This document shows, piece after piece, positions 6,857 to 35,617 of a DNA stretch of 64,000 nucleotides. Positions within the stretch are counted from its first letter, which is position 1. The number at the start of each line of letters is the position of its first letter. The position numbers were made by a program, and so were the translations under genes. Source of the stretch: Escherichia coli (GTDB lineage Bacteria > Pseudomonadota > Gammaproteobacteria > Enterobacterales > Enterobacteriaceae); NCBI RefSeq assembly GCF_030013595.1, contig NZ_CP122768.1; one strand, given 5' to 3'. The notes under the pieces were generated by a model that worked only from the letters and a program-made list of their open reading frames with translations, was not told the origin of the DNA and did no database searches.

Positions 6857-6994
6857 GATTCGGCTCTCCATTTTTTGTTGCCTTAGATATCAATGAAAAT
6901 GAAAAATGGCAGCGGAACGGAAAATCTGTTTTGTGAAAACACACGCATAAAAATGTTTTAAATCGGGTTTTAATGGACTCACAAGGAGGAAAAT

Positions 6995-7909
6995 ATGAGT
7001 CGTTCACAAAATTTACGCCACAATGTGATTAACCAGGTCATTGATGATATGGCGCGGGGTCATATCCCTTCCCCACTTCCATCGCAAAGTGCGCTGGCGG
7101 AAATGTACAACATCAGCCGCACTACAGTGCGTCATATTCTCAGCCACTTACGCGAATGCGGCGTCTTAACGCAGGTTGGAAACGACTATGTTATTGCGCG
7201 TAAACCTGACCATGATGACGGTTTCGCCTGTACTACCGCTTCAATGAGTGAACAAAACAAAGTGTTTGAGCAGGCTTTTTTCACGATGATAAACCAGCGC
7301 CAGTTACGCCCTGGGGAAACTTTTTCTGAACTGCAACTGGCTCGGGCCGCGGGTGTCAGCCCGGTTGTAGTAAGAGAATATCTTTTAAAATTCGGCCGTT
7401 ATAATCTTATTCAAAGCGAAAAGCGCGGCCAGTGGAGCATGAAGCAATTCGATCAATCCTACGCCGAGCAGCTGTTTGAACTACGCGAAATGCTCGAAAC
7501 ACATTCACTTCAGCACTTTCTCAACCTGCCTGATCATGATCCCCGCTGGCTGCAGGCGAAAACCATGCTCGAACGTCATCGGCTACTGCGTGACAACATC
7601 GGCAATAGCTTTCGCATGTTCTCGCAACTTGACAGAGATTTTCACTCCTTACTGCTTTCAGCTGCCGACAATATCTTTTTTGATCAATCTCTTGAGATCA
7701 TCTCAGTCATCTTTCATTTTCACTATCAATGGGACGAAAGCGATCTTAAACAGCGCAATATCATTGCCGTCGATGAGCATATGACCATTCTCAGCGCTCT
7801 GATTTGCCGCAGTGACCTTGATGCCACCCTTGCGCTCCGTAACCATTTGAATTCAGCTAAACAATCAATGATTCGATCCATTAATGAGAACACGCGTTAT
7901 GCTCATTAA
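6995..7909 (+). CDS. lgoR: GntR/FadR-family transcriptional regulator of L-galactonate catabolism
   Basis: 304-aa ORF with N-terminal wHTH; divergent from lgoD. Confidence 0.85.
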   Translation: MSRSQNLRHNVINQVIDDMARGHIPSPLPSQSALAEMYNISRTTVRHILSHLRECGVLTQVGNDYVIARKPDHDDGFACTTASMSEQNKVFEQAFFTMINQRQLRPGETFSELQLARAAGVSPVVVREYLLKFGRYNLIQSEKRGQWSMKQFDQSYAEQLFELREMLETHSLQHFLNLPDHDPRWLQAKTMLERHRLLRDNIGNSFRMFSQLDRDFHSLLLSAADNIFFDQSLEIISVIFHFHYQWDESDLKQRNIIAVDEHMTILSALICRSDLDATLALRNHLNSAKQSMIRSINENTRYAH

Positions 7910-16092: not shown

Positions 16093-19000
16093 ATGATGAA
16101 TAAATCCAATTTTGAATTCCTGAAGGGCGTCAACGACTTCACTTATGCCATCGCCTGTGCGGCGGAAAATAACTACCCCGATGATCCCAACACGACGCTG
16201 ATTAAAATGCGTATGTTTGGCGAAGCCACAGCGAAACATCTTGGTCTGTTACTCAACATCCCCTCTTGTGAGAATCAACACGATCTCCTGCGCGAACTTG
16301 GCAAAATCGCCTTCGTTGATGACAACATTCTCTCTGTATTCCACAAATTACGCCGCATTGGTAACCAGGCGGTGCACGAATATCATAACGATCTCGACGA
16401 TGCCCAGATGTGCCTGCGGCTAGGCTTCCGTCTGGCTGTCTGGTACTACCGTCTGGTCACCAAAGATTATGACTTCCCGGTGCCGGTATTTGTGTTGCCA
16501 GAACGTGGCGAGAACCTCTATCACCAGGAAGTGCTGACGCTAAAACAACAGCTTGAACAGCAGGTGCGAGAAAAAGCGCAAACTCAGGCAGAAGTCGAAG
16601 CGCAACAGCAGAAGCTGGTTGCTCTGAACGGCTATATCGCCATTCTGGAAGGCAAACAGCAGGAAACAGAAGCGCAAACCCAGGCTCGCCTTGCGGCGCT
16701 GGAAGCACAGCTTGCCGAGAAGAACGCGGAACTGGCAAAACAGACCGAACAGGAACGTAAGGCTTACCACAAAGAAATTACCGATCAGGCCATCAAGCGC
16801 ACACTCAACCTTAGCGAAGAAGAGAGTCGCTTCCTGATTGACGCGCAACTGCGTAAAGCAGGCTGGCAGGCCGATAGCAAAACCCTGCGCTTCTCCAAAG
16901 GCGCACGCCCGGAACCCGGCGTCAATAAAGCCATTGCCGAATGGCCGACCGGGAAAGATGAAACGGGTAATCAGGGTTTTGCGGATTATGTGCTGTTTGT
17001 CGGCCTCAAGCCCATCGCGGTGGTAGAGGCGAAACGTAAAAATATCGACGTTCCCGGCAAGCTCAATGAGTCGTATCGCTACAGCAAATGCTTCGATAAT
17101 GGCTTCCTGCGGGAAACCTTGCTTGAGCATTACTCGCCGGATGAAGTGCATGAAGCGGTGCCGGAGTATGAAACCAGCTGGCAGGACACCAGCGGCCAAC
17201 AACGGTTTAAAATCCCCTTCTGCTACTCGACCAACGGGCGCGAATACCGCGCAGCAATGAAAACTAAAAGCGGCATCTGGTATCGCGACGTGCGTGATAC
17301 CCGTAATATGTCGAAAGCCTTACCCGAGTGGCATCGCCCGGAAGAGCTGCTGGAAATGCTCGGCAGTGAACCGCAAAAACAGAATCAGTGGTTTGCCGAT
17401 AACCCTGGCATGAGCGAGCTGGGCCTGCGTTATTATCAGGAAGATGCCGTCCGCGCGGTTGAAAAGGCAATCGTCAAGGGTCAACAAGAGATCCTGCTGG
17501 CGATGGCGACCGGTACCGGTAAAACCCGTACCGCAATCGCCATGATGTTCCGCCTGATCCAGTCCCAGCGTTTTAAACGCATTCTCTTCCTTGTGGATCG
17601 CCGTTCTCTTGGCGAGCAGGCGCTGGGGGCGTTTGAAGATACGCGTATTAACGGCGACACTTTCAACAGCATTTTCGACATTAAAGGGCTGACGGATAAA
17701 TTCCCGGAAGACAGCACCAAAATTCACGTTGCCACCGTACAGTCGCTGGTGAAACGCACCCTGCAATCGGATGAACCGATGCCGGTGGCCCGTTACGACT
17801 GTATCGTCGTCGATGAAGCGCATCGCGGCTATATTCTCGATAAAGAGCAGACCGAAGGCGAGCTGCAGTTCCGCAGCCAGCTGGATTATGTCTCTGCCTA
17901 CCGTCGCATTCTCGATCATTTCGATGCGGTAAAAATCGCCCTCACCGCCACCCCGGCGCTGCATACGGTGCAGATTTTCGGTGAGCCGGTTTACCGTTAT
18001 ACCTACCGGACCGCAGTTATCGACGGTTTTCTGATCGACCAGGATCCGCCGATCCAAATCACCACCCGCAACGCCCAGGAGGGAGTTTATCTCTCCAAAG
18101 GCGAGCAGATAGAGCGCATCAGCCCGCAGGGGGAAGTGATCAACGACACCCTGGAAGACGATCAGGATTTTGAGGTCGCCGACTTTAACCGTGGCCTGGT
18201 GATCCCGGCGTTTAACCGCGCCGTCTGTAACGAACTCACCAACTACCTTGATCCGACCGGGTCGCAAAAAACGCTGGTCTTCTGTGTCACTAATGCTCAT
18301 GCCGATATGGTGGTGGAAGAGCTGCGTACCGCATTCAAGAAAAAGTATCCGCAACTGGAGCACGACGCGATCATCAAGATCACCGGTGATGCCGATAAAG
18401 ACGCGCGCAAAGTGCAGACCATGATCACCCGTTTCAATAAAGAGCGGCTGCCCAATATCGTGGTAACCGTCGACCTGCTGACGACCGGCGTCGATATTCC
18501 GTCGATCTGTAATATCGTGTTCCTGCGTAAAGTACGCAGCCGTATTCTGTACGAGCAGATGAAAGGCCGCGCCACGCGCTTGTGCCCGGACGTGAATAAA
18601 ACCAGCTTTAAGATTTTCGACTGTGTCGATATCTACAGCACACTGGAGAGCGTCGACACCATGCGTCCGGTGGTGGTGCGTCCGAAGGTGGAATTACAAA
18701 CGCTGGTCAACGAAATTACCGATTCAGAAACCTATAAAATTACCGAAGCGGATGGCCGTAGCTTTGCCGAGCACAGCCATGAACAATTGGTGGCGAAGCT
18801 CCAGCGCATCATCGGCCTGGCCACGTTTAACCGTGACCGCAGCGAAACGATAGATAAACAGGTGCGTCGTCTGGATGAGCTATGCCAGGACGCGGCGGGA
18901 GTGAACTTTAACGGCTTCGCCTCGCGCCTGCGGGAAAAAGGGCCGCACTGGAGCGCCGAAGTCTTTAACAAACTGCCTGGCTTTATCGCCCGTCTGGAAA

Positions 19001-19605
19001 AGCTGAAAACCGACATCAACAACCTGAACGATGCGCCGATCTTCCTCGATATCGACGATGAAGTGGTGAGCGTAAAATCGCTGTACGGTGATTACGACAC
19101 GCCGCAGGATTTCCTCGAAGCCTTTGACTCGCTGGTGCAACGTTCCCCGAACGCACAGCCGGCATTGCAGGCGGTGATTAATCGCCCGCGCGATCTCACC
19201 CGTAAAGGGCTGGTCGAGCTACAGGAGTGGTTTGACCGCCAGCACTTTGAGGAATCTTCCCTGCGCAAAGCATGGAAAGAGACGCGCAATGAAGATATCG
19301 CCGCCCGGCTGATTGGTCATATTCGCCGTGCAGCGGTAGGCGATGCGCTGAAACCGTTTGAGGAACGTGTCGATCACGCGCTGACGCGCATTAAGGGCGA
19401 AAACGACTGGAGCAGCGAGCAATTAAGCTGGCTCGATCGTTTAGCGCAGGCGCTGAAAGAGAAAGTGGTGCTCGACGACGATGTCTTCAAAACCGGCAAC
19501 TTCCACCGTCGCGGCGGGAAGGCGATGCTGCAAAGAACCTTTGACGATAATCTCGACAACCTGCTCGATAAATTCAGCGATTATATCTGGGACGAGCTGG
19601 CCTGA
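16093..19605 (+). CDS. hsdR: type I restriction enzyme R subunit
   Basis: ORF 16039..19605; start MMNKS at 16093 gives 1170 aa; helicase motifs (MATGTGKT, VVDEAHR) and coiled-coil QQ-rich segment. Confidence 0.95.
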   Translation: MMNKSNFEFLKGVNDFTYAIACAAENNYPDDPNTTLIKMRMFGEATAKHLGLLLNIPSCENQHDLLRELGKIAFVDDNILSVFHKLRRIGNQAVHEYHNDLDDAQMCLRLGFRLAVWYYRLVTKDYDFPVPVFVLPERGENLYHQEVLTLKQQLEQQVREKAQTQAEVEAQQQKLVALNGYIAILEGKQQETEAQTQARLAALEAQLAEKNAELAKQTEQERKAYHKEITDQAIKRTLNLSEEESRFLIDAQLRKAGWQADSKTLRFSKGARPEPGVNKAIAEWPTGKDETGNQGFADYVLFVGLKPIAVVEAKRKNIDVPGKLNESYRYSKCFDNGFLRETLLEHYSPDEVHEAVPEYETSWQDTSGQQRFKIPFCYSTNGREYRAAMKTKSGIWYRDVRDTRNMSKALPEWHRPEELLEMLGSEPQKQNQWFADNPGMSELGLRYYQEDAVRAVEKAIVKGQQEILLAMATGTGKTRTAIAMMFRLIQSQRFKRILFLVDRRSLGEQALGAFEDTRINGDTFNSIFDIKGLTDKFPEDSTKIHVATVQSLVKRTLQSDEPMPVARYDCIVVDEAHRGYILDKEQTEGELQFRSQLDYVSAYRRILDHFDAVKIALTATPALHTVQIFGEPVYRYTYRTAVIDGFLIDQDPPIQITTRNAQEGVYLSKGEQIERISPQGEVINDTLEDDQDFEVADFNRGLVIPAFNRAVCNELTNYLDPTGSQKTLVFCVTNAHADMVVEELRTAFKKKYPQLEHDAIIKITGDADKDARKVQTMITRFNKERLPNIVVTVDLLTTGVDIPSICNIVFLRKVRSRILYEQMKGRATRLCPDVNKTSFKIFDCVDIYSTLESVDTMRPVVVRPKVELQTLVNEITDSETYKITEADGRSFAEHSHEQLVAKLQRIIGLATFNRDRSETIDKQVRRLDELCQDAAGVNFNGFASRLREKGPHWSAEVFNKLPGFIARLEKLKTDINNLNDAPIFLDIDDEVVSVKSLYGDYDTPQDFLEAFDSLVQRSPNAQPALQAVINRPRDLTRKGLVELQEWFDRQHFEESSLRKAWKETRNEDIAARLIGHIRRAAVGDALKPFEERVDHALTRIKGENDWSSEQLSWLDRLAQALKEKVVLDDDVFKTGNFHRRGGKAMLQRTFDDNLDNLLDKFSDYIWDELA

Positions 19606-19805: not shown

Positions 19806-21395
19806 ATGAACAATAACGATCTGGTCGCGAAGCTGTGGAAGCTGTGTGACAATCTGCGCGATGGCGGCGTTTCCTATCAAAACTACGTCAATGAACTCGC
19901 CTCGCTGCTGTTTTTGAAAATGTGTAAAGAGACCGGACAGGAAGCGGAGTACCTGCCGGTAGGCTACCGCTGGGATGACCTGAAATCCCGTATCGGTCAG
20001 GAGCAGTTGCAGTTCTACCGTAATCTGCTGGTACATCTGGGCGCCGACAATCAAAAGCTGGTGCAGGCGGTGTTCCAGAACGTCAACACCACCATTACCC
20101 AGCCGAAACAGTTGACCGAACTGGTCGGCAATATGGATTCACTGGACTGGTACAACGGCGCACACGGTAAGTCGCGCGATGACTTCGGCGATATGTACGA
20201 AGGGCTGTTGCAGAAAAACGCCAACGAAACCAAGTCTGGCGCGGGCCAGTACTTCACCCCGCGTCCGCTGATTAAAACCATTATTCATCTGCTGAAACCG
20301 CAGCCGCGTGAAGTGGTGCAGGACCCGGCAGCCGGTACGGCGGGCTTTTTGATTGAAGCCGACCGCTACGTTAAGTCGCAGACCAATGATCTGGACGACC
20401 TTGATGGCGACACGCAGGATTTCCAGATCCACCGCGCGTTTATCGGCCTCGAACTGGTGCCCGGCACCCGTCGTCTGGCGCTGATGAACTGCCTGCTGCA
20501 CGATATTGAAGGCAACCTCGACCACGGCGGCGCAATCCGTCTGGGCAACACCCTGGGCAGCGACGGTGAAAACCTGCCGAAGGCGCATATTGTCGCCACT
20601 AACCCGCCGTTTGGCAGCGCCGCGGGCACCAACATTACCCGCACCTTTGTTCACCCGACCAGCAACAAACAGCTGTGCTTTATGCAGCATATTATCGAAA
20701 CGCTGCATCCCGGCGGTCGTGCGGCGGTAGTGGTGCCAGATAACGTGCTGTTTGAAGGCGGCAAAGGCACCGACATCCGTCGTGACCTGATGGATAAGTG
20801 TCATCTGCATACCATCCTGCGTCTGCCGACCGGTATTTTTTACGCTCAGGGCGTGAAAACTAACGTGCTGTTCTTTACCAAAGGGACGGTGGCGAACCCG
20901 CATCAGGATAAGAACTGCACCGATGATGTGTGGGTGTACGACCTGCGTACCAATATGCCGAGCTTCGGCAAGCGCACGCCGTTTACCGACGAGCATTTGC
21001 AGCCGTTTGAGCGCGTGTATGGCGAAGATCCCCACGGTTTAAGCCCGCGCACTGAAGGTGAATGGAGTTTTAACGCCGAAGAGACGGAAGTTGCCGACAG
21101 CGAAGAGAACAAAAACACCGATCAGCATCTGGCTACCAGCCGCTGGCGCAAGTTCAGCCGCGAGTGGATCCGCACCGCGAAATCCGATTCGCTGGATATC
21201 TCCTGGCTGAAAGATAAAGACAGTATTGATGCCGACAACCTGCCGGAGCCGGATGTATTAGCGGCAGAAGCGATGGGTGAACTGGTGCAGGCGCTGGGCG
21301 AACTGGATGCGCTGATGCGTGAACTGGGGGCGAGCGATGAGGCCGATTTGCAGCGTCAGTTGCTGGAAGAAGCATTTGGTGGGGTGAAGGAATGA
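19806..21395 (+). CDS. hsdM: type I restriction-modification N6-adenine methyltransferase M subunit
   Basis: 529-aa ORF with the NPPF catalytic motif (VATNPPFGS); 4-nt overlap with hsdS. Confidence 0.95.
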   Translation: MNNNDLVAKLWKLCDNLRDGGVSYQNYVNELASLLFLKMCKETGQEAEYLPVGYRWDDLKSRIGQEQLQFYRNLLVHLGADNQKLVQAVFQNVNTTITQPKQLTELVGNMDSLDWYNGAHGKSRDDFGDMYEGLLQKNANETKSGAGQYFTPRPLIKTIIHLLKPQPREVVQDPAAGTAGFLIEADRYVKSQTNDLDDLDGDTQDFQIHRAFIGLELVPGTRRLALMNCLLHDIEGNLDHGGAIRLGNTLGSDGENLPKAHIVATNPPFGSAAGTNITRTFVHPTSNKQLCFMQHIIETLHPGGRAAVVVPDNVLFEGGKGTDIRRDLMDKCHLHTILRLPTGIFYAQGVKTNVLFFTKGTVANPHQDKNCTDDVWVYDLRTNMPSFGKRTPFTDEHLQPFERVYGEDPHGLSPRTEGEWSFNAEETEVADSEENKNTDQHLATSRWRKFSREWIRTAKSDSLDISWLKDKDSIDADNLPEPDVLAAEAMGELVQALGELDALMRELGASDEADLQRQLLEEAFGGVKE

Positions 21396-22760
21396 GTGCG
21401 GAGAAATTGCCGGAGGGGTGGGTTGAGTGTGAATTATCCGAACTCGGTAACATTGTTACAGGGAAAACTCCCAGTACCAAGGAGCCTTCCAATTTTGGAG
21501 GCAGCATTCCTTTCATTAAACCAGGCGATCTTGATCTCGGTGGCTATATCATGAATACCGCCGATACTCTGACGGAGAAAGGGTTATCTCTTGTCCCCAC
21601 TCTTCCTGCCAATTCAGTCGTTGTGACGTGTATTGGAAATTTAGGAAAAGTTGGAATTACCGCTAAAAAATCAGCATCTAATCAACAAATAAATGCATTG
21701 ATCCCGTCAGAAAAGCTAAATGTAAAATTTGTTTATTACCAAATTTTAACATTAAAACCATGGTTAGAGTCTCAATCAGCAGCTACTACAATTGCGATTG
21801 TGAACAAGAGCAAATTTTCTCAGGCACCATTTAAATTCCCGTCGCTTGCCGAACAAAAAATCATCACTGAAAAACTCGATACGCTGCTGGCGCAGGTAGA
21901 CAGCACCAAAGCACGTCTTGAGCAAATCCCACAAATCCTGAATCGTTTTCGTCAGGCTATTCTAGCTAATGCTGTGGAAGGAAAATTGACCGACGAATGG
22001 CGAGCCGGAAAATGTTATATTACAGAAATCAAAAAATATCTGATATTATTCAGAATGCTCAAGTCGGATTAGTTCGTTCAGCTTCAGATCAAAGCGAAAT
22101 ATGCACTCAAAAAATGAGAACGCCTTACATAAAAATGAATAACATTCACAATGTTCTCGGAACAAATTTAGAAAAACTCGCTTATGTCAACTGTGATAGC
22201 TATGAACTGGAAAAATATAGATTAAAAAATGGAGATTGGCTCTTTAATACACGAAATAGTTATGAGTTAGTTGGTAAATCCTGTGTCTGGAATGGATGTA
22301 GCAATGCTGTATATAATAATAATATATTAAGAGTTAGACTAAAAGAAAACTACAATTCTGTTTTTTTAGATTATTGGTTTCACTCGTTCTATGGAGTGAG
22401 CATGCTTAATAGTATTAAATCCGCAACAACAAATGTTGCTGCGATATATCAGAAAGAACTCTTAAGTAAAAGTGTTCCATTCCCCCCCTTCCCGAACAAG
22501 CCGAGATTGTTCGCCGCGTCGAACAACTCTTCGCCTACGCCGACACCATAGAAAAACAGGTCAACAACGCCTTAGCCCGCGTTAACAACCTGACGCAATC
22601 CATCCTGGCAAAAGCGTTCCGTGGTGAACTCACCGCCCAGTGGCGGGCCGAAAACCCGGATTTAATCAGCGGAGAAAACAGCGCCGCCGCGTTGCTGGAA
22701 AAAATCAAAGCTGAACGCGCAGCCAGCGGGGGTAAAAAAGCCTCGCGTAAAAAATCCTGA
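21392..22760 (+). pseudogene. hsdS: type I specificity subunit HsdS, disrupted by two 1-bp homopolymer frameshifts; target-recognition domains differ from EcoKI
   Basis: three consecutive reading-frame pieces (21392..22072, 21997..22551, and a third frame to the TGA at 22758..22760); conserved central (LAEQKIITEKLDTLLAQVDSTKARLEQIPQIL) and C-terminal ([25 protein letters not shown]...) regions are recognisable. Confidence 0.8.
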
Positions 22761-22772
22761 TCATTATTTTCT

Positions 22773-22800
22773 GGCGCACCTTTCCGGTGCGCTTTTTATT
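22773..22800 (+). terminator. rho-independent terminator after hsdS
   Basis: hairpin ggcgcacc-tttcc-ggtgcgc followed by tttttatt. Confidence 0.6.
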
Positions 22801-22893
22801 ATTTTACGCCAATCATAACTCACGCAAATATATTTAAATCATTCCAGAAATTGCCTATTTTATTCTATTTTTAGCTGGACTTTCCCTGTATTT

Positions 22894-22911
22894 ACTGATG
22901 ATATATCCAGG
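22894..22911. promoter_or_regulatory. putative LexA box upstream of symE
   Basis: aCTGatgatatatcCAGg fits CTG-N10-CAG; symE is SOS-regulated. Confidence 0.35.
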
Positions 22912-22914
22912 TAT

Positions 22915-22995
22915 TTAGCGCGGTGCGGATGTGCGCCAACACACCCGCACCGCTCATCACAATCACTATTCCAGGAGAATAGCAGTTATGACTGA
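22915..22995 (-). ncRNA. symR: SymR antisense RNA (type I antitoxin) overlapping the symE 5' UTR and start codon; ends approximate
   Basis: established arrangement for symE; minus-strand TAAAAT -10-like hexamer at 23001..23006 and a hairpin (gcggtgcgg / ccgcaccgc) in the overlapped region. Confidence 0.4.
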
Positions 22996-23329
22996 CACGA
23001 ATTTTATTGCACAACCGTTCGAAGCAGAAGTCTCCCCGGCAAATAACCGTCAATTAACCGTGAGTTATGCGAGCCGCTACCCGGATTACAGCCGTATTCC
23101 CGCCATCACCCTGAAAGGTCAGTGGCTGGAAGCCGCCGGTTTTGCCACCGGCACGGCGGTAGATGTCAAAGTGATGGAAGGCTGTATTGTCCTCACCGCC
23201 CAACCCCCCGCCGCTGAAGAGAGCGAACTGATGCAGTCGCTGCGCCAGGTGTGCAAACTGTCGGCGCGTAAACAAAAGCAGGTGCAGGCGTTTATTGGAG
23301 TGATTGCCGGTAAACAGAAAGTCGCGTAA
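22988..23329 (+). CDS. symE: SOS-induced toxin SymE (AbrB-fold)
   Basis: 113 aa from [15 protein letters not shown] at 22988; position between hsdS and mcrB. Confidence 0.85.
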
Positions 23330-23490
23330 CAGCGTTTACTCCCGGTTAACCACCGGGAGCCTTCCACTGACTCAATAGAAACTTTCCCCCTCAGTAAATA
23401 TTTACCTGCCTGATTGTGCAGTAAAAATCTATTGTTTCAGTACGTTGCGAAAGCGATAATAGAGGCTTAGCAATGAGGAAGGCACATCTT

Positions 23491-24870
23491 ATGGAATCAA
23501 TTCAAGCCTGGATTGAAAAATTTATTGAGCAAGCACAGCAACAAAGTTCACAATCCACTAAAGATTATCCAACGTCTTACCGTAACCTGCGAGTAAAAGT
23601 GAGTTTCGGTTATGGCAATTTTACATCTATTCCCTGGTTTGCATTTCTTGGAGAAGGTCAGGAAGTTTCTAACGGTATATATCCCGTTATTCTCTATTAT
23701 AAAGATTTTGATGAGTTGGTTTTGGCTTATGGTATAAGTGACACGAATAAACCACATGCACAATGGCACTTTTCTTCTGACATACCTAAAACAATCGCAG
23801 AGTATTTCCAGACAACTTCGGGTGTATATCCTAAAAAATACGGACAGTCCTATTACGCCTGTGCCCAAAAAGTCTCACAGGGTATTGATTACACCCGGTT
23901 TGCCTCTATGCTGGACAACATAATCAACGACTATAAATTAATATTTAATTCCGGCGAGAGTGTTATTCCACCTATGTCAAAAACTGAATCATACTGTCTG
24001 GAAGATGCGTTAAATGATTTGTTTATCCCTGAAACCACAATAGAGACGATACTCAAACGATTAACCATCAAAAAAAATATTATCCTCCAGGGGCCGCCCG
24101 GCGTTGGAAAAACCTTTGTTGCACGCCGTCTGGCTTACCTGCTGACAGGAGAGAAGGCTCCGCAACGCGTCAATATGGTTCAGTTCCATCAATCTTATAG
24201 CTATGAGGATTTTATACAGGGCTATCGTCCGAATGGTGTCGGCTTCCGACGTAAAGACGGTATATTTTACAATTTTTGTCAGCAAGCTAAAGAGCAGTCA
24301 GAGAAAAAGTATGTTTTTATTATAGATGAAATCAATCGAGCCAATCTCAGTAAAGTATTTGGCGAAGTGATGATGTTAATGGAACATGATAAACGAGGCG
24401 AAAACTGGTCTGTTCCCTTAACCTACTCCAAAAACGATGAAGAACGATTCTATGTTCCGGAGAATGTTTATATTATCGGTTTAATGAATACTGCCGATCG
24501 CTCTCTGGCCGTTGTTGATTATGCCCTGCGCAGACGATTTTCTTTCATAGATATTGAGCCAGGTTTTGATACGCCACAGTTCCGGAATTTTTTACTGAAT
24601 AAAAAAGCAGAACCTTCATTTGTTGAATCTTTATGCCAAACAATGAACGAGTTAAACCAGGAAATCAGCAAAGAGGCCACTATCCTTGGGAAAGGATTCC
24701 GCATTGGGCATAGTTACTTCTGCTCCGGGTTAGAAGATGGCACCTCTCCGGATACGCAATGGCTTAAGGAAATTGTGATGACGGATATCGCGCCTTTACT
24801 CGAAGAATATTTCTTTGATGACCCCTATAAACAACAGATATGGACCGACAGATTATTAGGTGACTCATAG
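23491..24870 (+). CDS. mcrB: McrB GTPase subunit of the 5-methylcytosine-specific restriction system
   Basis: 459 aa from MESIQAW at 23491; AAA+ GTPase motifs (LQGPPGVGKT). Confidence 0.9.
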   Translation: MESIQAWIEKFIEQAQQQSSQSTKDYPTSYRNLRVKVSFGYGNFTSIPWFAFLGEGQEVSNGIYPVILYYKDFDELVLAYGISDTNKPHAQWHFSSDIPKTIAEYFQTTSGVYPKKYGQSYYACAQKVSQGIDYTRFASMLDNIINDYKLIFNSGESVIPPMSKTESYCLEDALNDLFIPETTIETILKRLTIKKNIILQGPPGVGKTFVARRLAYLLTGEKAPQRVNMVQFHQSYSYEDFIQGYRPNGVGFRRKDGIFYNFCQQAKEQSEKKYVFIIDEINRANLSKVFGEVMMLMEHDKRGENWSVPLTYSKNDEERFYVPENVYIIGLMNTADRSLAVVDYALRRRFSFIDIEPGFDTPQFRNFLLNKKAEPSFVESLCQTMNELNQEISKEATILGKGFRIGHSYFCSGLEDGTSPDTQWLKEIVMTDIAPLLEEYFFDDPYKQQIWTDRLLGDS

Positions 24871-25972: not shown

Positions 25973-28900
25973 TCAGGAGGCGAGCACCTCCACCAGCACA
26001 TCCGTTGCCCAGCTCTCTTCACTGTTGACCACATTCCCTTCCTGACAAGCTTGATCCATTTTGACTAACTGGAAAGAAACGTCATCGCGGAAGTCAAAGT
26101 AATGCCATTGCGATGCAAAGTTGATACGCCAGTAGCCCATCCCCTGATCGAAGCGGATCTTCAATACCTGACCATCCTCAAAAGTCACCGTCAGTTTACG
26201 ATGGTGAGGGATATCGCGCGGCGAGTCGAACACCGCCAGTTCTACCGGCCTGCCCAGCGCAGCTGCAAACCACTGATCAGCGAAATCCTGAAAATCCGCT
26301 ATGCTCATCCAGTCATGAAAAGGCCGGTTACCGGGGCGATCTTTATCTTTAAACAGCGTATCCAGCGTCACTTCAGCGCCATCGGTCAGCTTTGTTTTTA
26401 GCGGTCTCAGAATTGATCCCAACAACGCCAGCGCAACCGGGTTTTGCAGATAGCGATCGGTATAGTGAACGCCGGTAATTCGCGTATTTTTCATCAGTGA
26501 CTGCGCTTCTTCATGGTCGTTAAACAGCACGTCCCAGAAGCGTTGCCCAAACTGCGACAACGGTCCATTCAACTGTTTGTGGATCTGGATGTCTTTGACC
26601 CGCTCGACAGCGTTGGCGGCTTTAGCTGGCAGAATAAACTCGCTCAGTTCTACCGTTTTATAACCGAGGCTACGCACTACCAGTTCGTCATTCAGGTGCC
26701 ACTCCGGCCCCGGAATCGTTGCCTGCTGACTGCGAGAGGCCAGCGTCATCACGCGATCGGCAAAGGTAACCTGGGCAACAATCGGTAATTGCAGATCCTG
26801 TTCAACATGGCACAGTCGCACACCCAGCGCAGTAAATTGCGATAGTTCATGCAACAGGTCCGGATCATCCACTCCCGCAGGAATAACAAGATCGACCTCG
26901 ACGTTGTCTTTTAGCCGATAGCTCTGAATAGCCGCGCGGAACTGACGGGCGTATAAATCCCACTCATTGGGCGCGCCAGTCATCCACAGGGTGAGCTTTT
27001 CAGCGCCTTCGTTAATCGCCCGGCGAATCGTATCGCCAATAGCGCCAGGGCAGTAGCGGGCATCCGGCAGCGAGAATGTCTCTTCATCCGGTAAACCGAT
27101 GTAATACGTGAAGTCATCGCCAAGCCAGGCCAGCGCCGCTTTGCGATCCAGCAAATCATGATCGTGGCGAGTCTGGGAATCAAGCAGGCATTCACTGCAT
27201 GCAGTATCACAATGGCGGCAGCCTAACTGTTTCACCATTCCCTGCAAAATAGCTTCAATGTGTACCGGTGCGCTGGAGGCAAAACCTGCACCACCGCTGA
27301 TCACATCATAAAGCTGTACGGCTAATACCGATTGCCCATCCTCCAGTCTGACCGGACGTACAGAATAGCCGAGTTCTGCGGTGGAGATACCCAGAACGCC
27401 CGCCAGCGCCTGACGCAGAGCAACCGCCAGAGTCATGGCGACAATCCGCCCCTCTTCTGTGTTATCTGGCAGATACTCGCCATTTTGTGGTTTGCGCAGA
27501 ACCATTTCAAAGACATCGGTGCGCGCCAGTGCGCCCAGGGTGACTTTCTTCACGAGTGCCGTCGAACCTGGGCAAATCAGACGATGATTCTGGCTGTCGC
27601 GGTCCGCTTTACCCGGACGCGGTGGATAGTGAGCTTCCATACTTTTCGGCGCATCATTTTCATTCAGCATCGACTCCGCACGGCCACAGCTCAGACACAA
27701 TGCATAACCGTGTCCACCTTCCCCCAGACTTTGCTGGAAAACATGCCCATCAGCCCCAGAAGCCATATAACCCATTAGCGGGTTAGGCAACGGTACGGGC
27801 TCTGCTTTAACAAAGACCCACGCGGGGACAACCGGGACGAATTTCATGGTTTCAATATTGTTCGTTACCGGAGCATGTGCATCGGTAACAAACCCGGCAG
27901 GCTGCAGCACCTGACGGCGATTATCCAGGATGATTTTTTCGCCGCAGGCGCTGTTGGAGCAAAAGAGCATCCCGGAACTGCTCATCCCCTCTTCATAGCC
28001 AATGGTCCCGCATTTATGACAGCGCCAGGCGCAATCCAGACGCTGGGCTTCATTGGTATCAGCATTAATGTTGTGCCAGTGCAGTGAGACACCGGCAGAG
28101 CGGAAGACACGGCCATCAAGAATGATCTCTGCTCCCGGTGCATATTCACGAATGGCAACACCGAGGTTACGGGAAGGTAATCCTTTATAACGGGAGACGT
28201 TATCTTCACGGTCCTTTTTATCACGACTTTTCTGCGATTTTTCGCGGATATAATCTTCCATCGTGAAGTTATCAAACGTCACTACATCTGTCGGGAAACC
28301 GTATCCCGGCAGGAAGGTTCTGGCAGCCAGATCGCGCAGCAGATACTCGCCACAGTGCCGTTTCTTCTCCAGCTCTATGCGCTTACGATAAGGCGTTTGC
28401 GGCTGCGACTCACGCTCCTGGGTCACGAGATCGCGATAAACGGAGAGCCACCGCTGTTGCAGGAAGGTGATCGCGTTGATTGTTTTGTCCCGCAGATGTT
28501 CGGCTCTTGCGCCATGCAATGCCGTACCTTTCACCAGCCGTTCCAGCGCCGTGTCGATATCAAGAACAGAGCGTTCCAGCCAGACTTTGAAGCGTTCGCA
28601 TTTTGACTCCCCGTCATCTTCACCGAAAAACCAGAGGCTATCGAGGCTGGTTTTCTCTTTATCGGTTTCGCCAATAACGTTACATAAAAAGTCGGACAGT
28701 AATAATGCATTGACGTGACGTTGCACCAGTCGGGCGGAGTTCATCGCGACCATGGGTGCCGGGATCATGGTTTCAAACGGCCAGAGTGGGTTGGCAAAAA
28801 CCTGTTGGTCGTGTGGGTTACCCTTACATAGGGTGTAAGAGATCGCGCGCGATTCTTTACTACGCCCGGCTCGCCCGGCGCGCTGTAAATAGTTGGCCGG

Positions 28901-31900
28901 ATGTGGCGGTACGTTGTTCATTACCACCGCAGTAATGCCCCCGATATCAACCCCCATTTCCATGGTGGTGGAACAGTTGAGAACATTTAGTTGCCCATTC
29001 TTGAACATCTTTTCATAGCTTTGCAGACGTTCTGACGACTGCTGGGCAGAGTGCTCGGCAGTGCGATAGTAGAAACCGCCTTCCACGACACGATCGTTGA
29101 TGTCTGTCCAGACGTTTTCCGACCGCAATTGTGCGATCAGCGGATCATTGCTGACCCAGTCGCGTGCTTTTGCCAGACCCTCTGCGTAGTCTTCCTGTGA
29201 ACGATCCAGCTTCCAGATTTCCGGCATGGTGACTTTCTGCGCGACAAAAGTGTCATATTGCGCCTGGGTAAGATGCTCGAACGAAATATGGGTAGGCAGA
29301 TAAGGGGTTAAGCCTTTAAAAGCCGTATCCAGGATTTTATTGGTTACCGGGCAAATCCAGGCATCCGTGATTAAAGAAAAAGTCATATGCTCTTTCGGTA
29401 AATAAAAACGGTTGCCATCGGGTTTCAGTACTGCAAGCGGTCCGGTAAGTTGGGCCCATGCTTCTTTCAGCCATGTATTGATAATATCAATAGTCGCCGT
29501 ATTGACGGTTTTGAATCCAGCCCCCAGCATCAGTAACTTCGCTAAACGATGGGATACGTTGCCATTACGAATTTGAGGCCAGCGTCTGTTCTGATTATCT
29601 TCAGGATCTTTTGATTCCGGGTTACGGACGAATTTTGATGAAAAACGGCTACCAATCCAGTTTTTCAGCTCATCATCCAGCTGTGTGAAGTTGCTTTCGC
29701 GAACATAAAGATCCAACGTAACCTTGAGAAAATCGCGCCAGTCATCCAGCGTTAATCCTTTTTCCTGCCAGTGCAAGGGGCTCTTATGTATTTTCTCCAG
29801 CCCCTGGTAACCAACCTGAACCAGCCCCTGTGTTTCCAGGCTGTTAGTCCGTTTAGGGCGACGCATGAATTCCCGGAACAACAACATTTCCGAAAGCTTT
29901 AGTGGCCCGCCGTTTTTATTAAACACTTCAGGCTGCAAATAGTGGTTATATTTCAGTACCGGGCCACGGATATCGGCTTTATCTTTAAGCTCGTTAACCA
30001 TTTCTGTCCAGGTGCGGGATACCAGGGTAGTTGCTGCTTTTCCACCGGTTGCAGCCTGATAAGCCTGTTCAAGCTGTTCAGCCTGCGCTTGTGACAATTT
30101 CGCCTGGTCTGGCATTCCCCAGCTTCGATATTCTTCTGCCTGCTCACGGGCTTGCTTCGCCCTGGCCGCTAATTTTTCCAGATCGGCATTGGCATTCGGC
30201 GCCGTGGACGTTTGCGTCCGTTGATGCCAGCTCAGAATTTCGACTACGCTTCCGCGTAAGAGACTGCGTTCTGCTTCTTGCTGCATACGCACCGCCATTC
30301 GAGCTGTACCTTGTCGACTGTCCGTAAAGGTAATGAGTCGACGTCCTCGCCCTGGCAACGAATCTGGTCCGACGCCCTCTTTGCCTTCATCACTGGTAAA
30401 GTCCTGACAATACTCAAGAACGGTAGGCACGATGTTAGTAACGTAAAATGGCCCACCTAATAATGCACGCCGGAAGGGTTGTTTCCCACTCATGCCTCGG
30501 TAGCCACAGCCGCTGGCGCTACAAACCTTTTTATCATTAATAATCAGCGGAATGCTGTCATTATTAATAACGCCAATACGGCGCGTCTGACGGTCGAGGC
30601 GTTGTAGGGTATAGCCTGTCTCGCTGGTCTCTCCTGCGGCAATAATCAACGGAGGCAGGAAACCGTTCTCTTTTTCGACTTTTTCCTCTGTAGTGTCATG
30701 TTCAACAGGTACTTCATCCTGCAAGGAGAACTCATCGCCACCTTTATTTTCCCATTGGACAAGTTTGCCCTTTTTGTCCTGCGCCAGAAGATGAGGCTCA
30801 TTACAATCATTACAGAACGCCACTTCGTAGACAGGGCTTCCACAGTCGCAATTTTGTCGCTGGTTCACATACACATAGCCAAAGGGCCAGCCTTTTTCGA
30901 GCGGTGTACCGTGCTTTAATCTGCAATCTTTATCAACACAAGCCCATATTCCTTGGGTATTACGCTGGAAGATATGCGCCCTGACTTTAAGAAATGCGGG
31001 ATCCTTTGCATTAGGTTGAGTCCCTGAACAGACATCGATCCAACGCAGTACTTCCTGCTGGCTGTAATGCTGTTTTGTCAGCGCATTTAACCGCTGCGTC
31101 ATCTCATCCAGTTTCATTGGATTAGGTTGGCTAACCAACATTTCACGTATGTAACGCGCTTCGGGGGAGTGCGTAAGCGCATAAAAGCGCTCAGGACTTA
31201 TCCCTTTAATTTTATTATCATTTTTATCTTTTAGATCCAGATCAGGTATTTGCTCTATTTCGTCTAACGGAACAGAAACGTTTTTGGATGGTTCCAGTTC
31301 AGGAATCACCCGACTTCCGTCCAGAACATCGATGCGCTCCTGCGGGATACCGGATAATTCAGAGAGAAATTTTTTCAGCTGTTTTTCGGCGTCGCTGCCG
31401 GCAATGGTCGCAGAGGTCGCTACAAAGCGCACATCATCTGGCGTCACGCCAAACGCTGTCATCACACGACGCAGCTGGAGTGCCAGTTCAGCGGCCTGCG
31501 ACCCGACATAGGTATGCGCTTCATCCAGTACAATCCAGCGTAGTGATTTTTGTGCTTTGGATTGCTGGATAATCGGGGCGTCGACCTGGCGAACCATCAT
31601 ATATTCCAGCATCGTGCCGTTGGTCACCAGAATCGGGGCAGGCTCCAGACGCATCTTTTCACGGGATAAGACTTCATTTGGTCTATTATCCTGCACTGTT
31701 TTCATTTTTGCGTGGAGCTCTTCTGTATTTCCGTTATACAAGCAGTAGCGGATCCCAGTACCAAAACCACGCGTCCAGGCATCCAGACGCTCGCGCTGTG
31801 AATTAATCAAGGCGTTCAATGGATAGAGAAAAAGGGCTCGGACACCAACCAACGGATTGTTGCCATTTTCATGCAGTTCCCGGTAAAGATCTTCCAGCAC

Positions 31901-32314
31901 CGGAACCATAAAACATTCCGTTTTACCTGAACCCGTACCACTGGTTACCACCACTGAATGTTTCTTTTCCAGCAAAGCTTTCCAACTGGCTAACTGGTGT
32001 GTAAAAGGCTTCCAGTCAGCACCAAATCGGTACCGGCCATTACTCTGATTATCCAGTGAATCAACCACTGCTTTGCTCAACAATGCGTTGCCTTCCGTCA
32101 GACTGCGCATCGTGTGGTTTGACTCCTTCCAGCCAAACATTTGCTGGAATACCGGAGAAGCAAGGAATGAGCCCGGTTTCCCACAATCAGCCCCCATTTG
32201 TTGCGCGAGATGTTCACGCAGCTGCGGGTTGGTTACGCCCATGATACTGAGCGTTGCTTCAGTTGAACGAGACAACGATTGTTCAATAAGTGACGAAAAA
32301 TAGCGTGTAGTCAT
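25973..32314 (-). CDS. 2113-aa DEAD/DEAH-box helicase with Cys-rich zinc-ribbon-like modules (DruE-like defence helicase; inferred)
   Basis: Walker A SGTGSGKT (31919..31945), DEAH (31514..31525), SAT motif, helicase motif V MEMGVDIG and [10 protein letters not shown] (28862..28885), Cys clusters [45 protein letters not shown] before the ATG. Confidence 0.85.
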
Positions 32315-32326
32315 CCTTATTCCTTT

Positions 32327-35300
32327 TTATTTTTTAGCAACATAACGCAACAGGCTGCACTGAAAGATGGTCTTAAACCAGCGGGAATCGAAGTCCCTGA
32401 CTTGCCTCAGGAAAAATACGGCACCGGGTTTACGGTCAAATACAGCTTCAAAAGAAGTATTTCCGCTTGCCACAGCTGCAGCGAAGACGGGTAACCAGGC
32501 CACGGAATAGCGGTGATTTGCGTCAGGATTAATACCAATCACTGGATTTTTTTGTGACATCATCCATTTATACAGACGCTTGCAGCCATATTCAGGCCAG
32601 CGAGCTTCACTGTGCTCACGTAAAAGCTCCTGATACCACCCGTGGACACAAGATTCAGGAATAGACGGAGGGAGATATCCGTTACTTAACCATTTCTCAA
32701 TTTCATCGGCATATGTCGGGAACACGAGCCCCAGCCGTTGAAACATATTAGTAACCAGTAATTTCTGGGTTTCCTCCGGTGCACCTTTTTGGCTCAGGAA
32801 CAATTTGAAACGCTCAGATGCAGCTTTGATCTCAAAGATGGGGAAAAACTCCCATAGAATAGGGAACTCATTCTCAATACGACTCAGGTACTCTGCTGAC
32901 ATTTCAAATTTGAAGAGCGACATCGCCAATGCCTGCGGATGCTGCACTAGTGCACGCCATACTTCAAAGGTTGCCAGCGGTAAATAACCAAATTGATCGT
33001 ACAGGCTACGCATAAATTGCCAGCCGGAATGGGCAGGATCGTTAGCCATCTGTCCGAGAACCAGTGTGATGGTATTAACTTCTGCCTGTGGATTAAAAAG
33101 CTGGGTCGCTTTCTGCAATGAGCGGATGTTGCTTTCTTCTACCGGTAACGAAGATTCGCCACGAATGAAGCAGGGGCGAAAAGCCATCTCCTCACCCGGT
33201 TTAGGAACAACCAACCATGGCCCATTTTTGTTAACGATTGAGCTCAACTCATATTCACCGACAGGCACTCCCTCGCTCATTCTTGATGCTAAGGGGATGG
33301 ATTTCCTCTCGGGTTCACTTAACAGCATGATAACGGGGGAAGGAATCTGCCCAGCACGATGGTTCACTGACTGGCTGAGTAATAGTTCTTTTTCATAATC
33401 ATAGCGCAGGCTGTATTTATAGCGACGAATTTGCCAGGCCATGACCACACCTGCCCCCGTAATACGCATCTCAACAACCTGATCAATACCTGCCTCAAGT
33501 GAAATCAGGTTCTCAATATGTTCGCGCAGACTATAGAGATTCAATTCAACAGGACGATCGCTCTACGCCGTATAACACCATTCATGCCATGCCTGTAATC
33601 CACTAACGGAGCGCAAATACAACTGCAATGTATATTTTGTCGGCTCACCATTTCTGGAGAACAGAAACGCTCTGGAACCCAGCAGATCATGCAGCGTAAT
33701 GTTTTTATCCAGAGGACGTCCGTTTACATCAAGAGCGAGACAGCCTTTAGCGGGAAAAGGTAACTCAATGTCGATGGGGTCAGCCGCCAAATTAGGCAGA
33801 ACTTGTAATGTAATAAATGCCGGAGGTACCCCTTCCGCTTTAAGTTGTATCTCTGTTCGCCCCTCAGTACGCTTACGTGTAGCCTCCAATGTTTTATCTT
33901 TAAGTTTTGCTACACAAGGATGCTGTGTGGTGATTAAGATAGTGCCTTCATTTGCGTGCATTCCACCTTTTATCTCAATACTGAAATCAGCAGGCAAGAT
34001 ACCGATTTTGCGACGCAAGAGCGTTTCATTGTTACTATTACGGATAGAAAGATATTGAGCCCCCAGCATCTCTTGTATATGACATTGCTCAATTGAAATT
34101 CCGCTCAGGTAACGCGTTACATCAATGCTTTGAATATCCGGTAGTGTAGAAATGACTTTTGGTACACCAATAAATGTTTCATCTGGATGACAAACCCAGC
34201 TTGCACGCTTTCCATTTAGAGCAAACCTTCCGATGCTGATTTGTTCTCTTCCGGTGCGAATCCGATAAGTTTCATTTGCTGTAACTGTAACGTCCTGACA
34301 TCCCTTCACAGGTAGTGCTTTTAGTCCTAATACGTTTACTGCGCTCGATTGGCCATCAAAACCAGCAACATTGCTATTATCCCGAGGGAGTACAATCAGA
34401 ACATCGCTGCTTCGCACACTGCAAGAAGCCTGTCCCTGTAACAGCCATTGATCTGCATCAACGATGAAGGTTAACGGCACCTCACCAATGGCAATTTCAC
34501 TGTCATCAAGTTTAATGCTCCCAACAATCATCCCTCCAGCACGAGCCACTAATGACAAACCAGCCGATGGATTTTGCCTGACAAATCTCACTTCGCTTTT
34601 ACGTAATCGAACTGTTGCCTGTCTGTTTTCCAGGGAAGCATAGGCTGGCCCAAGGCCAGAGACTTCCTCACCATCTTCACAAATGGCAAGTTCAAAGCGC
34701 GTAGTTGACGGCTCGCTTGTTACAGGAAAGGAAACTTCGTCCGGAAGAGATACTATCACCCTAAGCTCATCTGGATGCTTTTCTGACCAATAGAATTGGC
34801 AACGCGTACTCTTATTTTTTTGTAGTCGAGGCTTAGCCTCTACAGAGGCTGCGCATAGCAGTCCATTCAAAAAATGCGTTCCTGTTTCATCATCTAACGG
34901 TATTGGAAACTCGCTTCGCCAGGTAGGGTGAACCTTCTCAAGCTGTTGTACTGGTTCTTTGTGATTTATTAGGTTGTGAGTAAGTACTAAGGAATTGAGG
35001 TTATCAGCCATATGACTGATAAGTTCTACAGAGGTATCTTCGCTAAAAACAGTTGGCAGCGCTGATTTTTCTATGACAGCTCTTGCCAGCGAAAGGGCAG
35101 AAAAACCTGACTGCTTTGCTTGCTCATATTGTCCAAGGATCCTGGAGAAAACAGCCAGAAAGCGACTGTCTGATTCTTTGAGTAGCCGGAAAGGTAAACC
35201 ACCTTCACTGAATAATGTTCCGAGAAAATTGCGTCGTTCAGATTCATAAAATCGAATTGGGCGCAGCCAGTAATCTTCCATCCCTTTCGGTACGATAGTA

Positions 35301-35617
35301 CCAAGCTCTGTGGCGGTGAATGAAATCCCTATTTTTTTATATATAGGGTCCCACGTCCATCCGCATTGCCGTTCATAATCCCTGCGGTACCACTCAGAGC
35401 AAAAAAGAACAAAACAGGCAGCAAAGTCCCTATTACATATATTAGATTGTGATTGACCGACCGCACGGAGTAGCTGCGTTAATTGGGTATATTCATCATT
35501 GGTTGCATGATATTCATAAAGAGGACGGCCATCCGGTTGTCTCAACCCTCTAAGATTCACAAAGTTACTTAGCCAGGAAGTACATTTTACCCATGAAATG
35601 TATTCTGATTGACCCAA
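32327..35617 (-). pseudogene. ~1096-aa protein of unknown function (DruH-like by position) interrupted by one in-frame TAG at 33563..33565
   Basis: ORFs 33563..35617 (684 aa) and 32327..33544 (405 aa) are in the same frame, separated only by TAG plus six sense codons; no Shine-Dalgarno precedes the downstream TTG; 12-nt gap with RBS to the helicase gene. Confidence 0.75.

Follow-up and report, generated by a model that had tools for sequence, protein, structure and literature searches.

Among the described type I systems, EcoKI of E. coli K-12 (HsdS model PDB 2Y7C/2Y7H) is closest to the operon studied here: it occupies the same locus with the same gene order, has near-identical HsdR and HsdM subunits and shares the conserved regions of HsdS. 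Our locus differs from EcoKI in that both target-recognition domains (TRDs) of HsdS have diverged and in that hsdS is frameshifted. In the latter respect it resembles ordinary E. coli hsdS null alleles and pseudogenes, in which hsdR and hsdM remain intact but, for lack of HsdS, restriction and modification are both abolished. We see no substantive difference from these, except that the present case is natural and that its mutational path is documented within one clone.

Parallels of another kind come from type IC systems with truncated specificity subunits. In NgoAV of Neisseria gonorrhoeae, too, hsdS is split by a homopolymer frameshift that directly follows the first TRD and the central helix, and what results is again an N-terminal half-HsdS (about 210-226 aa) and, downstream, a remnant without function. 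Strains differ in the length of the NgoAV poly-G tract (6 to 9), and the truncated form is active with a palindromic specificity (PMC9577141), whereas the system described here belongs to type IA and carries an A7 to A6 change of single origin. In EcoR124I(delta50), EcoDXXI(deltaC) and EcoDXXI(deltaN), loss of the C-terminal TRD leaves TRD1 and the central helix D1; these EcoR124I and EcoDXXI truncations are engineered or transposon-derived type IC variants with proven activity, and no type IA equivalent of them is known (PMC3874165).

An hsdRMS operon at the EcoKI locus

We analysed a 64-kb stretch of E. coli DNA, hereafter called the window. The type I operon that it contains and the parts of its HsdS are the following:

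16093..19605, + strand: hsdR, type IA restriction/translocase subunit, intact, 1170 aa
19806..21395, + strand: hsdM, type IA methyltransferase subunit, intact, 529 aa
21392..22760, + strand: hsdS, probable pseudogene of 1369 bp (the intact allele has 1371 bp and encodes 456 aa)
21422..21840, + strand: TRD1 (N-terminal), approximate limits, GC 0.39, diverges from EcoKI
21841..22005, + strand: central conserved region (helix D1), approximate limits, whole in the first ORF of hsdS
22006..22480, + strand: TRD2 (C-terminal), approximate limits, GC 0.31, read in the -1 frame
22489..22760, + strand: C-terminal conserved region (helix D2 and tail), in the -2 frame only and without a usable start codon
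22773..22801, + strand: terminator-like hairpin and T-run closing the hsdMS transcription unit, from a consensus scan only

HsdR is identical to its K-12 EcoKI counterpart at 1157 of 1170 residues (99%) and fully identical to the copy in the closest complete genome, while HsdM matches K-12 at 514 of 529 residues (97%) and differs from the closest complete genome by one substitution, H4N. The order of the locus is mrr - hsdR - hsdM - hsdS - symE - mcrBC, with neighbours as in K-12. The intact form of HsdS aligns with EcoKI HsdS end to end, and EcoKI is also its best PDB match. The overall identity of 43% lies almost entirely in the conserved parts: the central region is highly identical (LAEQKII.EKLDTLLAQVDSTKAR.EQIPQIL.RFRQA...), and residues 363-456 of the intact form, the last 94 of the protein, are 100% identical to the EcoKI C-terminus. 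NF007278 matches residues 1-456 of intact HsdS at 469 bits, which falls below the 662-bit equivalog cut-off because the TRDs differ. Subunit identity, HsdS layout and chromosomal position all assign the system, by sequence comparison, to type IA (EcoKI family), as the original prediction had proposed for hsdR and hsdM. Its description of HsdS, with recognisable central and C-terminal conserved regions and two TRDs unlike those of EcoKI, agrees with our alignment to EcoKI HsdS.

Both TRDs are only weakly similar to those of EcoKI, and since both have diverged, the recognition sequence is expected to differ from the AAC N6 GTGC of EcoKI. DNA searches found TRD1 in 5 and TRD2 in 3 of 5,426 complete E. 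coli genomes. Outside E. coli, the nearest relatives in protein searches were at most 65% identical for TRD1 and at most 50% identical for TRD2, and all of them are uncharacterised. Protein searches, DNA searches and the PDB, where only generic HsdS folds were matched, gave no assignment of a recognition sequence for these TRDs. The earlier suggestion that the TRDs are novel is thus right insofar as they are rare and distant from their relatives. The allele is not new sequence, however, since its intact form is already present on about 100 public contigs.

A real and a possible second single-base deletion in hsdS

The start codon of hsdS (ATG at 21392) overlaps the stop codon of hsdM in an ATGA motif. 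From there the gene is split over three reading frames, with breaks at an A6 run and at a C7 run:

21392..22072, + strand: first ORF of hsdS, 226 aa, made up of 215 native residues (TRD1 and D1) and an out-of-frame tail
22031..22036, + strand: A6 run, -1 frameshift (A7 in intact alleles), directly after D1 and between the TRDs
22482..22488, + strand: C7 run, at which the frame shifts by -1 for the second time (intact alleles and the A6 sister genomes have C8)

Frame 0 leads to a stop at 22070-22072 after 226 aa, the last 11 of which form the out-of-frame tail YLILFRMLKSD. The native sequence resumes in the -1 frame (ISDIIQNAQ...), which stops at 22549-22551, and it is the -2 frame that reaches the native stop at 22758-22760. 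The two deletions sum to -2 and do not restore the frame; interrupted by two -1 frameshifts, the window holds no continuous hsdS reading frame with both TRDs and both conserved helices. Reading of the ORFs reproduced the coordinates, the frames and both breaks that had been called from the letters alone. The further claim that one added base per tract would restore a full-length protein has a natural counterpart in A7/C8 copies that encode 456 aa without interruption, and the peptides reconstructed at that time (...TEIKKISDIIQNAQ... and a second one) are exactly those of natural intact HsdS.

The same hsdS allele is found in three complete E. coli genomes, where it has A7 and C8 and encodes an uninterrupted 456-aa HsdS. 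Our copy differs from these three only in A6 for A7, C7 for C8 and one synonymous C/T difference at 22128. The exact intact 456-aa protein occurs in 217 blocks of the collection we searched and on 97 contigs. Besides the three complete genomes, about 100 draft contigs show the intact state, compared with 9-13 contigs that have A6 and 2 that have only C7. A7/C8 is the ancestral and dominant form of this hsdS. We rejected the idea that the A7/C8 allele is itself broken, a reading that its RefSeq annotation as "two partial pseudogenes" might suggest: its ORF is uninterrupted, and GenBank submitters annotate the 456-aa protein. Another candidate was programmed ribosomal or transcriptional slippage, with -1 movement of tRNA-Lys on the A run, or of tRNA-Pro on the C run, which would recreate the native protein. 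As a designed mechanism it was rejected on the grounds that the tracts are short, that no obvious stimulatory element was seen by eye and that the intact A7/C8 form is ancestral and dominant.

Inheritance of the A6 deletion and status of the C7 tract

In independent assemblies (NCBI and Logan), at least 13 contigs code for an identical 226-aa truncated HsdS. These contigs are 99.9-100% identical to the window over the aligned flanks, and all of them carry the same base at a marker position:

22128..22128, + strand: synonymous SNP that serves as a marker of the A6 sub-lineage (C here; all A7 alleles have T)

We found 22128C in 8/8 A6 sequences and in 0/11 A7 sequences (Fisher p = 1.3e-5). Because the same truncated product recurs in independent assemblies and is always linked to 22128C, we count the A6 frameshift as real and as one mutation inherited in a sub-lineage, not as a sequencing error. 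The original prediction had offered an inactivated gene or sequencing errors as its two options, and for A6 the recurrence on at least 13 contigs and the linkage to 22128C show that the mutation is real and inherited.

The accuracy of the surrounding assembly was judged against the closest complete genome, NZ_CM149870.1, as the reference for an indel census. A census against 18KM2445 had been dropped, given that this strain is only about 98% identical and that the many small indels reflect strain divergence; for this purpose it was replaced by the 99.9%-identical HCP5S3_I2. Over the 64 kb, the aligned sequence of the window and NZ_CM149870.1 differs by 26 SNPs and two indels only, namely the pair in hsdS, while an A9 run, an A8 run and 19 further A/T runs, each 7 nt long, agree between the two. 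The window holds 23 homopolymers of at least 7 nt, and the probability that two hits placed at random among these would both fall inside hsdS is p = 0.012; their joint location in hsdS is not chance. Both nonsense SNPs of the window, in druH and hypT, are confirmed in independent assemblies, and for this reason the assembly looks accurate.

These data bear directly on the idea that both frameshifts stem from mistakes in sequencing or assembling homopolymers and that the real gene is an intact A7/C8 copy. Each change does have the form of a 1-nt under-call in a homopolymer, no other G/C run of the 64-kb window would be as long as the C8 of the intact state, C7 is absent from the other A6 assemblies with a resolved C tract, and the second-ORF products of the window are not on record. 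We nevertheless regard this idea as very improbable, given that A6 recurs across different projects in perfect linkage to 22128C, that the comparison with the closest genome revealed no other indel even in the A9 and A8 runs, and that the druH and hypT nonsense SNPs were both confirmed. For A6 taken by itself, an error is effectively excluded.

The C tract is a different matter. Among the A6 genomes, C7 is unique to the window, as the four A6 sisters with a resolved tract have C8; the short-read contigs L010-L014 break within TRD2. Sisters of the A6/C8 type include GCA_021649405.1 and GCA_008326365.1. The product of the second ORF, for which alternative starts give 179, 184 or 145 aa, has no exact match on record. 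Since C7 is unique among the A6 genomes and its ORF products are not on record, the second hit to hsdS may not exist. Within the same clone, P0004/L025 combines C7 with A7. The C tract, which in the intact state is the window's longest run of G or C, has therefore either slipped or been miscalled more than once. That C7 alone is an error is a serious prospect to which we give somewhat less than an even chance.

Variable tract lengths within one gene also raise the question of phase variation, in which the A and C tracts would be contingency sites with a reversible effect, turning the system off and on or altering its specificity in the manner of the NgoAV poly-G tract. The A run directly follows the central conserved region and lies between the two TRDs, which is the position of repeat tracts in phase-variable hsdS genes (PMC7383803), and the haplotypes A7/C8, A7/C7, A6/C8 and A6/C7 all occur within one near-identical clone. 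It follows from these four haplotypes that the C tract has changed at least twice in this clone, provided that the calls are real and not miscalls. The C run, however, is placed after TRD2 and not between the TRDs, and tracts of 7 and 8 nt are shorter than the 9-nt criterion applied to phase-variable hsd genes (PMC7383803). Moreover, A6 arose once, in linkage with 22128C, the cluster members listed include none with A8 or C9, and the two deletions total -2 without restoring the frame. The intact state dominates here, whereas NgoAV shows a broad spread of tract lengths (PMC9577141). On balance, we consider phase variation unlikely.

Expected loss of activity and erosion of the defence island

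We think it probable that hsdS is a pseudogene of a chromosomal type IA operon with a rare TRD pair and that the system is devoid of both restriction and modification. In the course of events that we infer, replication slippage would have dropped one A from the A7 tract at codons 214-216, just after the central helix, with the consequence that translation would end after 226 residues. A second base is missing from the C8 run where TRD2 meets the C-terminal conserved helix, owing either to a later slippage or to a base-calling error; such a slippage would have been neutral once hsdS was already dead. Since the M2S1 methyltransferase and the R2M2S1 endonuclease should both be unable to assemble on a target when full-length HsdS is missing, the intact HsdR and HsdM would be orphaned. 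Because both complexes need full-length HsdS, the strain most likely lacks restriction as well as modification by its type I system. Type IA systems tolerate the loss of HsdS, since restriction alleviation keeps HsdR under control. Restriction alleviation is described in general terms only in PMC3874165.

The strain and its A6 relatives are thus predicted to be without a type I barrier and without the matching m6A pattern. Loss of this barrier would affect transformability, the uptake of plasmids and phages and the reading of the methylome, and intact clone-mates would permit determining the specificity of the allele. Intact copies are carried by SRR30668523 within the clone and by HCP5S3_I2, which lacks the druH amber. 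Our understanding of type I systems as such is left unchanged; this would be an ordinary decaying defence gene and not a new type of system.

Loss of activity would be incomplete if the 226-aa product, with its TRD1 and D1, acted as a half-subunit. Such a half would homodimerise and, together with HsdM, methylate and perhaps restrict a palindromic TRD1 half-site, while in A6/C8 genomes the two halves would reassemble the wild-type specificity. Truncated HsdS of EcoR124I, EcoDXXI and NgoAV behave in this way (PMC3874165, PMC9577141), and co-expressed EcoDXXI halves, which correspond to the A6/C8 state of the sister genomes, regenerate wild-type activity (PMC3874165). The architecture of our locus is compatible with this, as the break follows exactly on D1, both hsdR and hsdM have stayed intact, and the A6/C8 genomes have an ORF of 249 or 254 aa, with ATG codons at 21997 and 22012, that covers TRD2 and D2. 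The precedents, however, are all of type IC, and homodimers are not known in other families; in type IA, D1 and D2 were judged too dissimilar to substitute for each other in a 2014 review (PMC3874165), and here they are 36% identical. Furthermore, C7 takes D2 away from the C-terminal half in the window, no good Shine-Dalgarno sequence was found upstream of the C-half ATGs when the sequence was read by eye, and in so young a lineage the intactness of hsdR and hsdM does not signal selection. We therefore view half-subunit activity as improbable, although a complete TRD1 and D1 in the first ORF may allow some residual methylation of altered specificity. Slightly more doubtful still is that the change from A7 to A6 would convert the system, by a self-paired TRD1-D1 half or by a TRD2-D2 partner in the A6/C8 sisters. 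If true, type IA would thereby gain its first natural example of a half-size or split specificity subunit, and together with a variable C8 tract E. coli would have a homopolymer-driven switch of type I specificity.

The preferred reading of hsdS as a decaying gene fits the state of its neighbours. The adjacent type III Druantia system carries a nonsense mutation of its own:

32327..35617, - strand: druH (yjiT), with an amber codon at 33563-33565 (TTG to TAG)

A frameshift in mcrC (CCC to CC) is present in sister strains, and this frameshift as well as the druH amber are confirmed in independent assemblies. As judged from the sequences, the hsdS mutations arose in a clone that has the druH amber as its marker, and this amber appears as the earliest event because it is common to every clone member examined; it would have been followed by hsdS A6, hsdS C7 and the mcrC frameshift, each in a separate branch. 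The loss of hsdS is part of a stepwise erosion of the defence island in one clone, which offers a mutation-by-mutation record of such decay in E. coli. In the collection, 29 blocks list the 405-aa druH fragment. The island itself has the arrangement mrr - hsdRMS - symE - mcrBC - Druantia III and corresponds to the "immigration control region" of E. coli.

Family and reading frames of hsdS

The hsd genes of the window and the frame changes in hsdS are as follows.

hsdR, 16093..19605: intact; HsdR 99% identical to the EcoKI subunit of K-12
hsdM, 19806..21395: intact; HsdM 97% identical to the EcoKI subunit of K-12
hsdS start, 21392, + strand: ATG overlapping the hsdM stop codon
hsdS frame 0, 21392 to stop 22070-22072, + strand: 226 aa
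First frame change, 22031..22036, + strand: run of six A (A6)
hsdS -1 frame, stop at 22549-22551, + strand: continues ...ISDIIQNAQVGLV...
Second frame change, 22482..22488, + strand: run of seven C (C7)
hsdS -2 frame, stop at 22758-22760, + strand: rest of the protein

The gene order mrr - hsdRMS - symE - mcrBC, with a type III Druantia pair after it, identifies this neighbourhood as the E. coli immigration control region. Once repaired, HsdS can be aligned with EcoKI HsdS over its whole length, being nearly identical in the central conserved region and 100% identical over the last 94 residues; the EcoKI subunit (PDB 2Y7C) is also its top solved-structure match, and NCBIfam NF007278 covers its full length. 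Judged by sequence, every testable feature of type IA membership is thus present, and the originally proposed assignment to the EcoKI family holds for HsdR, HsdM and the conserved regions of HsdS. Both target-recognition domains (TRDs) show weak similarity to their EcoKI counterparts and are rare, with TRD1 found in 5 and TRD2 (AT-rich, GC 0.31) in 3 of 5,426 complete E. coli genomes. Their nearest relatives elsewhere are uncharacterised proteins of at most 65% (TRD1) and 50% (TRD2) identity, which suggests that the specificity probably differs from that of every classical type IA enzyme. The TRDs had been predicted to be novel; they are indeed rare and diverged from EcoKI, but the allele is already deposited in public databases.

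This exact allele occurs in 3 complete E. coli genomes, namely 18KM2445 (dog, Switzerland), HCP5S3_I2 and LCP30S3_I5 (both pig, UK), whose 1371-bp hsdS copies carry A7 and C8 and translate without interruption into 456 aa. The exact 456-aa protein was further found in 217 blocks of a public assembly collection, on 97 contigs and in several flanking backgrounds. Compared with the intact allele, the hsdS of the window lacks two bases and has one synonymous C/T difference at 22128, and nothing else. Frame translations and this comparison confirm the two frame breaks of the original prediction, with coordinates right to the base. The native part of the 226-aa product ends in ...TEIKK and is followed by the out-of-frame tail YLILFRMLKSD. 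In the intact allele, the Pro-Pro of "PFPPLPEQ", where TRD2 meets the C-terminal conserved helix D2, is encoded by the C8 tract.

In RefSeq (PGAP), the 456-codon A7/C8 gene is entered as a pair of overlapping "partial" pseudogenes ("missing C-terminus", "missing N-terminus") at 6001..7371 of locus L001 (NZ_CP151004.1) and 22142..23512 of the HCP5S3_I2 locus (NZ_CM149870.1). The ORF is uninterrupted at both loci and the 456-aa protein is present in GenBank records, and the split appears to be an artefact of annotation, caused by a mosaic combination of TRDs that lacks a full-length reference protein.

Origin of the two frameshifts

HCP5S3_I2, the closest complete genome, is >99.9% identical to the window over all 64 kb; the alignment contains 26 SNPs and just two indels, both of which lie in hsdS. 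The remaining length differences are only two IS elements present in its genome and absent from the window: an IS3-family insertion beside yjiS (window about 36272) and an IS1 that splits a pentapeptide-repeat/type III effector-like gene (window about 45875), a region uninterrupted in the window. Among the 22 homopolymers of at least 7 nt in the window, the A9, the A8 and the 19 A/T runs of length 7 match HCP5S3_I2; C8, the intact state, would be the longest G/C run, with the next being 6. The chance that two random hits among 23 long runs both fall in hsdS is p = 0.012. Furthermore, two nonsense SNPs of the window, druH L685amber and hypT W129*, were each seen in many independent assemblies. 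Since the only indels are the hsdS pair, the long runs agree and the nonsense SNPs are reproduced, the assembly looks accurate.

hypT, 57780..58691, + strand: hypochlorite-responsive LysR-type regulator; SNP at 58165, W129* relative to the closest genome

With 253 blocks of the public collection containing the truncated 128-aa HypT, W129* is no error but a null allele that is common in nature.

The exact 226-aa HsdS product is encoded by at least 13 contigs of varied origin (GCA_021649405.1, GCA_036246625.1, GCA_036246605.1, GCA_008326365.1 and several Logan sequencing-run assemblies), at loci identical or near-identical to the window. All of these have C at 22128 and every A7 sequence examined has T (22128C in 8/8 A6 versus 0/11 A7 sequences; Fisher p = 1.3e-5). 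Because A6 is shared by different assemblies and linked to 22128C, it is a real, inherited, single mutation that marks a sub-lineage and no sequencing artefact. Of the two readings first offered, an inactivated specificity subunit is therefore supported for A6, and sequencing error is possible only for C7.

C8 is present in the A6 genomes with contigs extending to the C tract (L009/L027, L016/L029 and L030); their hsdS consists of the 226-aa ORF and an overlapping 249- or 254-aa ORF with TRD2 and the C-terminal helix. Exact product look-ups found the A6/C7 combination nowhere besides the window. A7/C7, with a 386-aa product, occurs in the same clone in SRR14510402 and one further contig, giving three C7 contexts within one clone, and the C8 tract may be a local slippage hotspot. 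All four tract haplotypes exist among near-identical genomes, and the C tract must therefore either have slipped at least twice or have been miscalled repeatedly. We lean towards C7 being real in this isolate; the functional conclusion does not depend on it because A6 lies upstream. Five independent short-read contigs (L010-L014) end inside TRD2 (window about 22316..22420, near TATATAATAATAATATATTAAG), one of them (L010) with four mismatches within its final 40 bases. Evidently, short-read assemblies break in TRD2, masking the C-tract state of many genomes.

Predicted consequence of HsdS truncation

Slippage at A7 would have caused the -1 frameshift, leaving an HsdS that is presumably truncated after TRD1 and the central helix. 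Because a two-TRD specificity subunit would be missing, neither an M2S1 methyltransferase nor an R2M2S1 nuclease should assemble on a target, and the strain is expected to lack both restriction and modification from the hsd system with hsdR and hsdM still intact. Type IA systems tolerate the loss of HsdS because HsdR activity is curbed by restriction alleviation. A review covers restriction alleviation in a general way and also bears on whether truncated HsdS could remain active as a half-subunit, either as homodimer or by reassembly of split halves (PMC3874165). Both are documented in type IC alone, no truncated-HsdS homodimers are known in other families, and the central and C-terminal helices D1 and D2 of type IA are dissimilar (PMC3874165). 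With D1 and D2 sharing 36% identity here and D2 lost from the C-terminal half through C7 in the window, such activity appears very improbable.

Phase variation through the hsdS tracts would resemble NgoAV, the type IC system of Neisseria gonorrhoeae, in that the A run lies between the TRDs as in phase-variable hsdS tracts (PMC7383803; PMC9577141). Unlike in phase-variable hsdS, however, both tracts are shorter than the 9-nt criterion (PMC7383803); A6 arose once, no longer tract variants were seen among the sequences examined, and the intact form is dominant, making a switch of this kind highly unlikely. Instead, hsdS is an ordinary pseudogene; the system it belongs to is a known one, its specificity is uncharacterised and the allele is already public.

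Further losses in the defence island

DruE helicase gene, 25973..32314, - strand: 2113 aa, intact; type III Druantia, adjoins mcrC
druH (yjiT), 32327..35617, - strand: partner of DruE; amber codon at 33563-33565 (TTG to TAG)

The window druH is broken into 684 + 405 aa, compared with an intact 1096 aa in the closest complete genome. Because the 405-aa fragment was found in 29 blocks of the collection, the amber is real and marks the clone.

hsdS tract states and other changes within the druH-amber clone
A7/C8 (intact): L026 (and 14 similar places), L028; other change, none
A7/C7: SRR14510402; other change, none
A6/C8: GCA_008326365.1; other change, none
A6/C8: GCA_021649405.1, ERR4421132; other change, mcrC -1 frameshift (CCC to CC at 25525)
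A6/C7: window; other change, none

The mcrC frameshift (loci L027, L030 and L033) yields 222 + 108 aa and is another independent defence-gene hit in the same island and clone, with mcrC being intact in the window; ERR4421134 (L033) carries it on a contig that ends short of hsdS. One clone is thus losing several defence genes of one island by point mutations, a pattern more in keeping with genuine pseudogenisation than with a designed switch.
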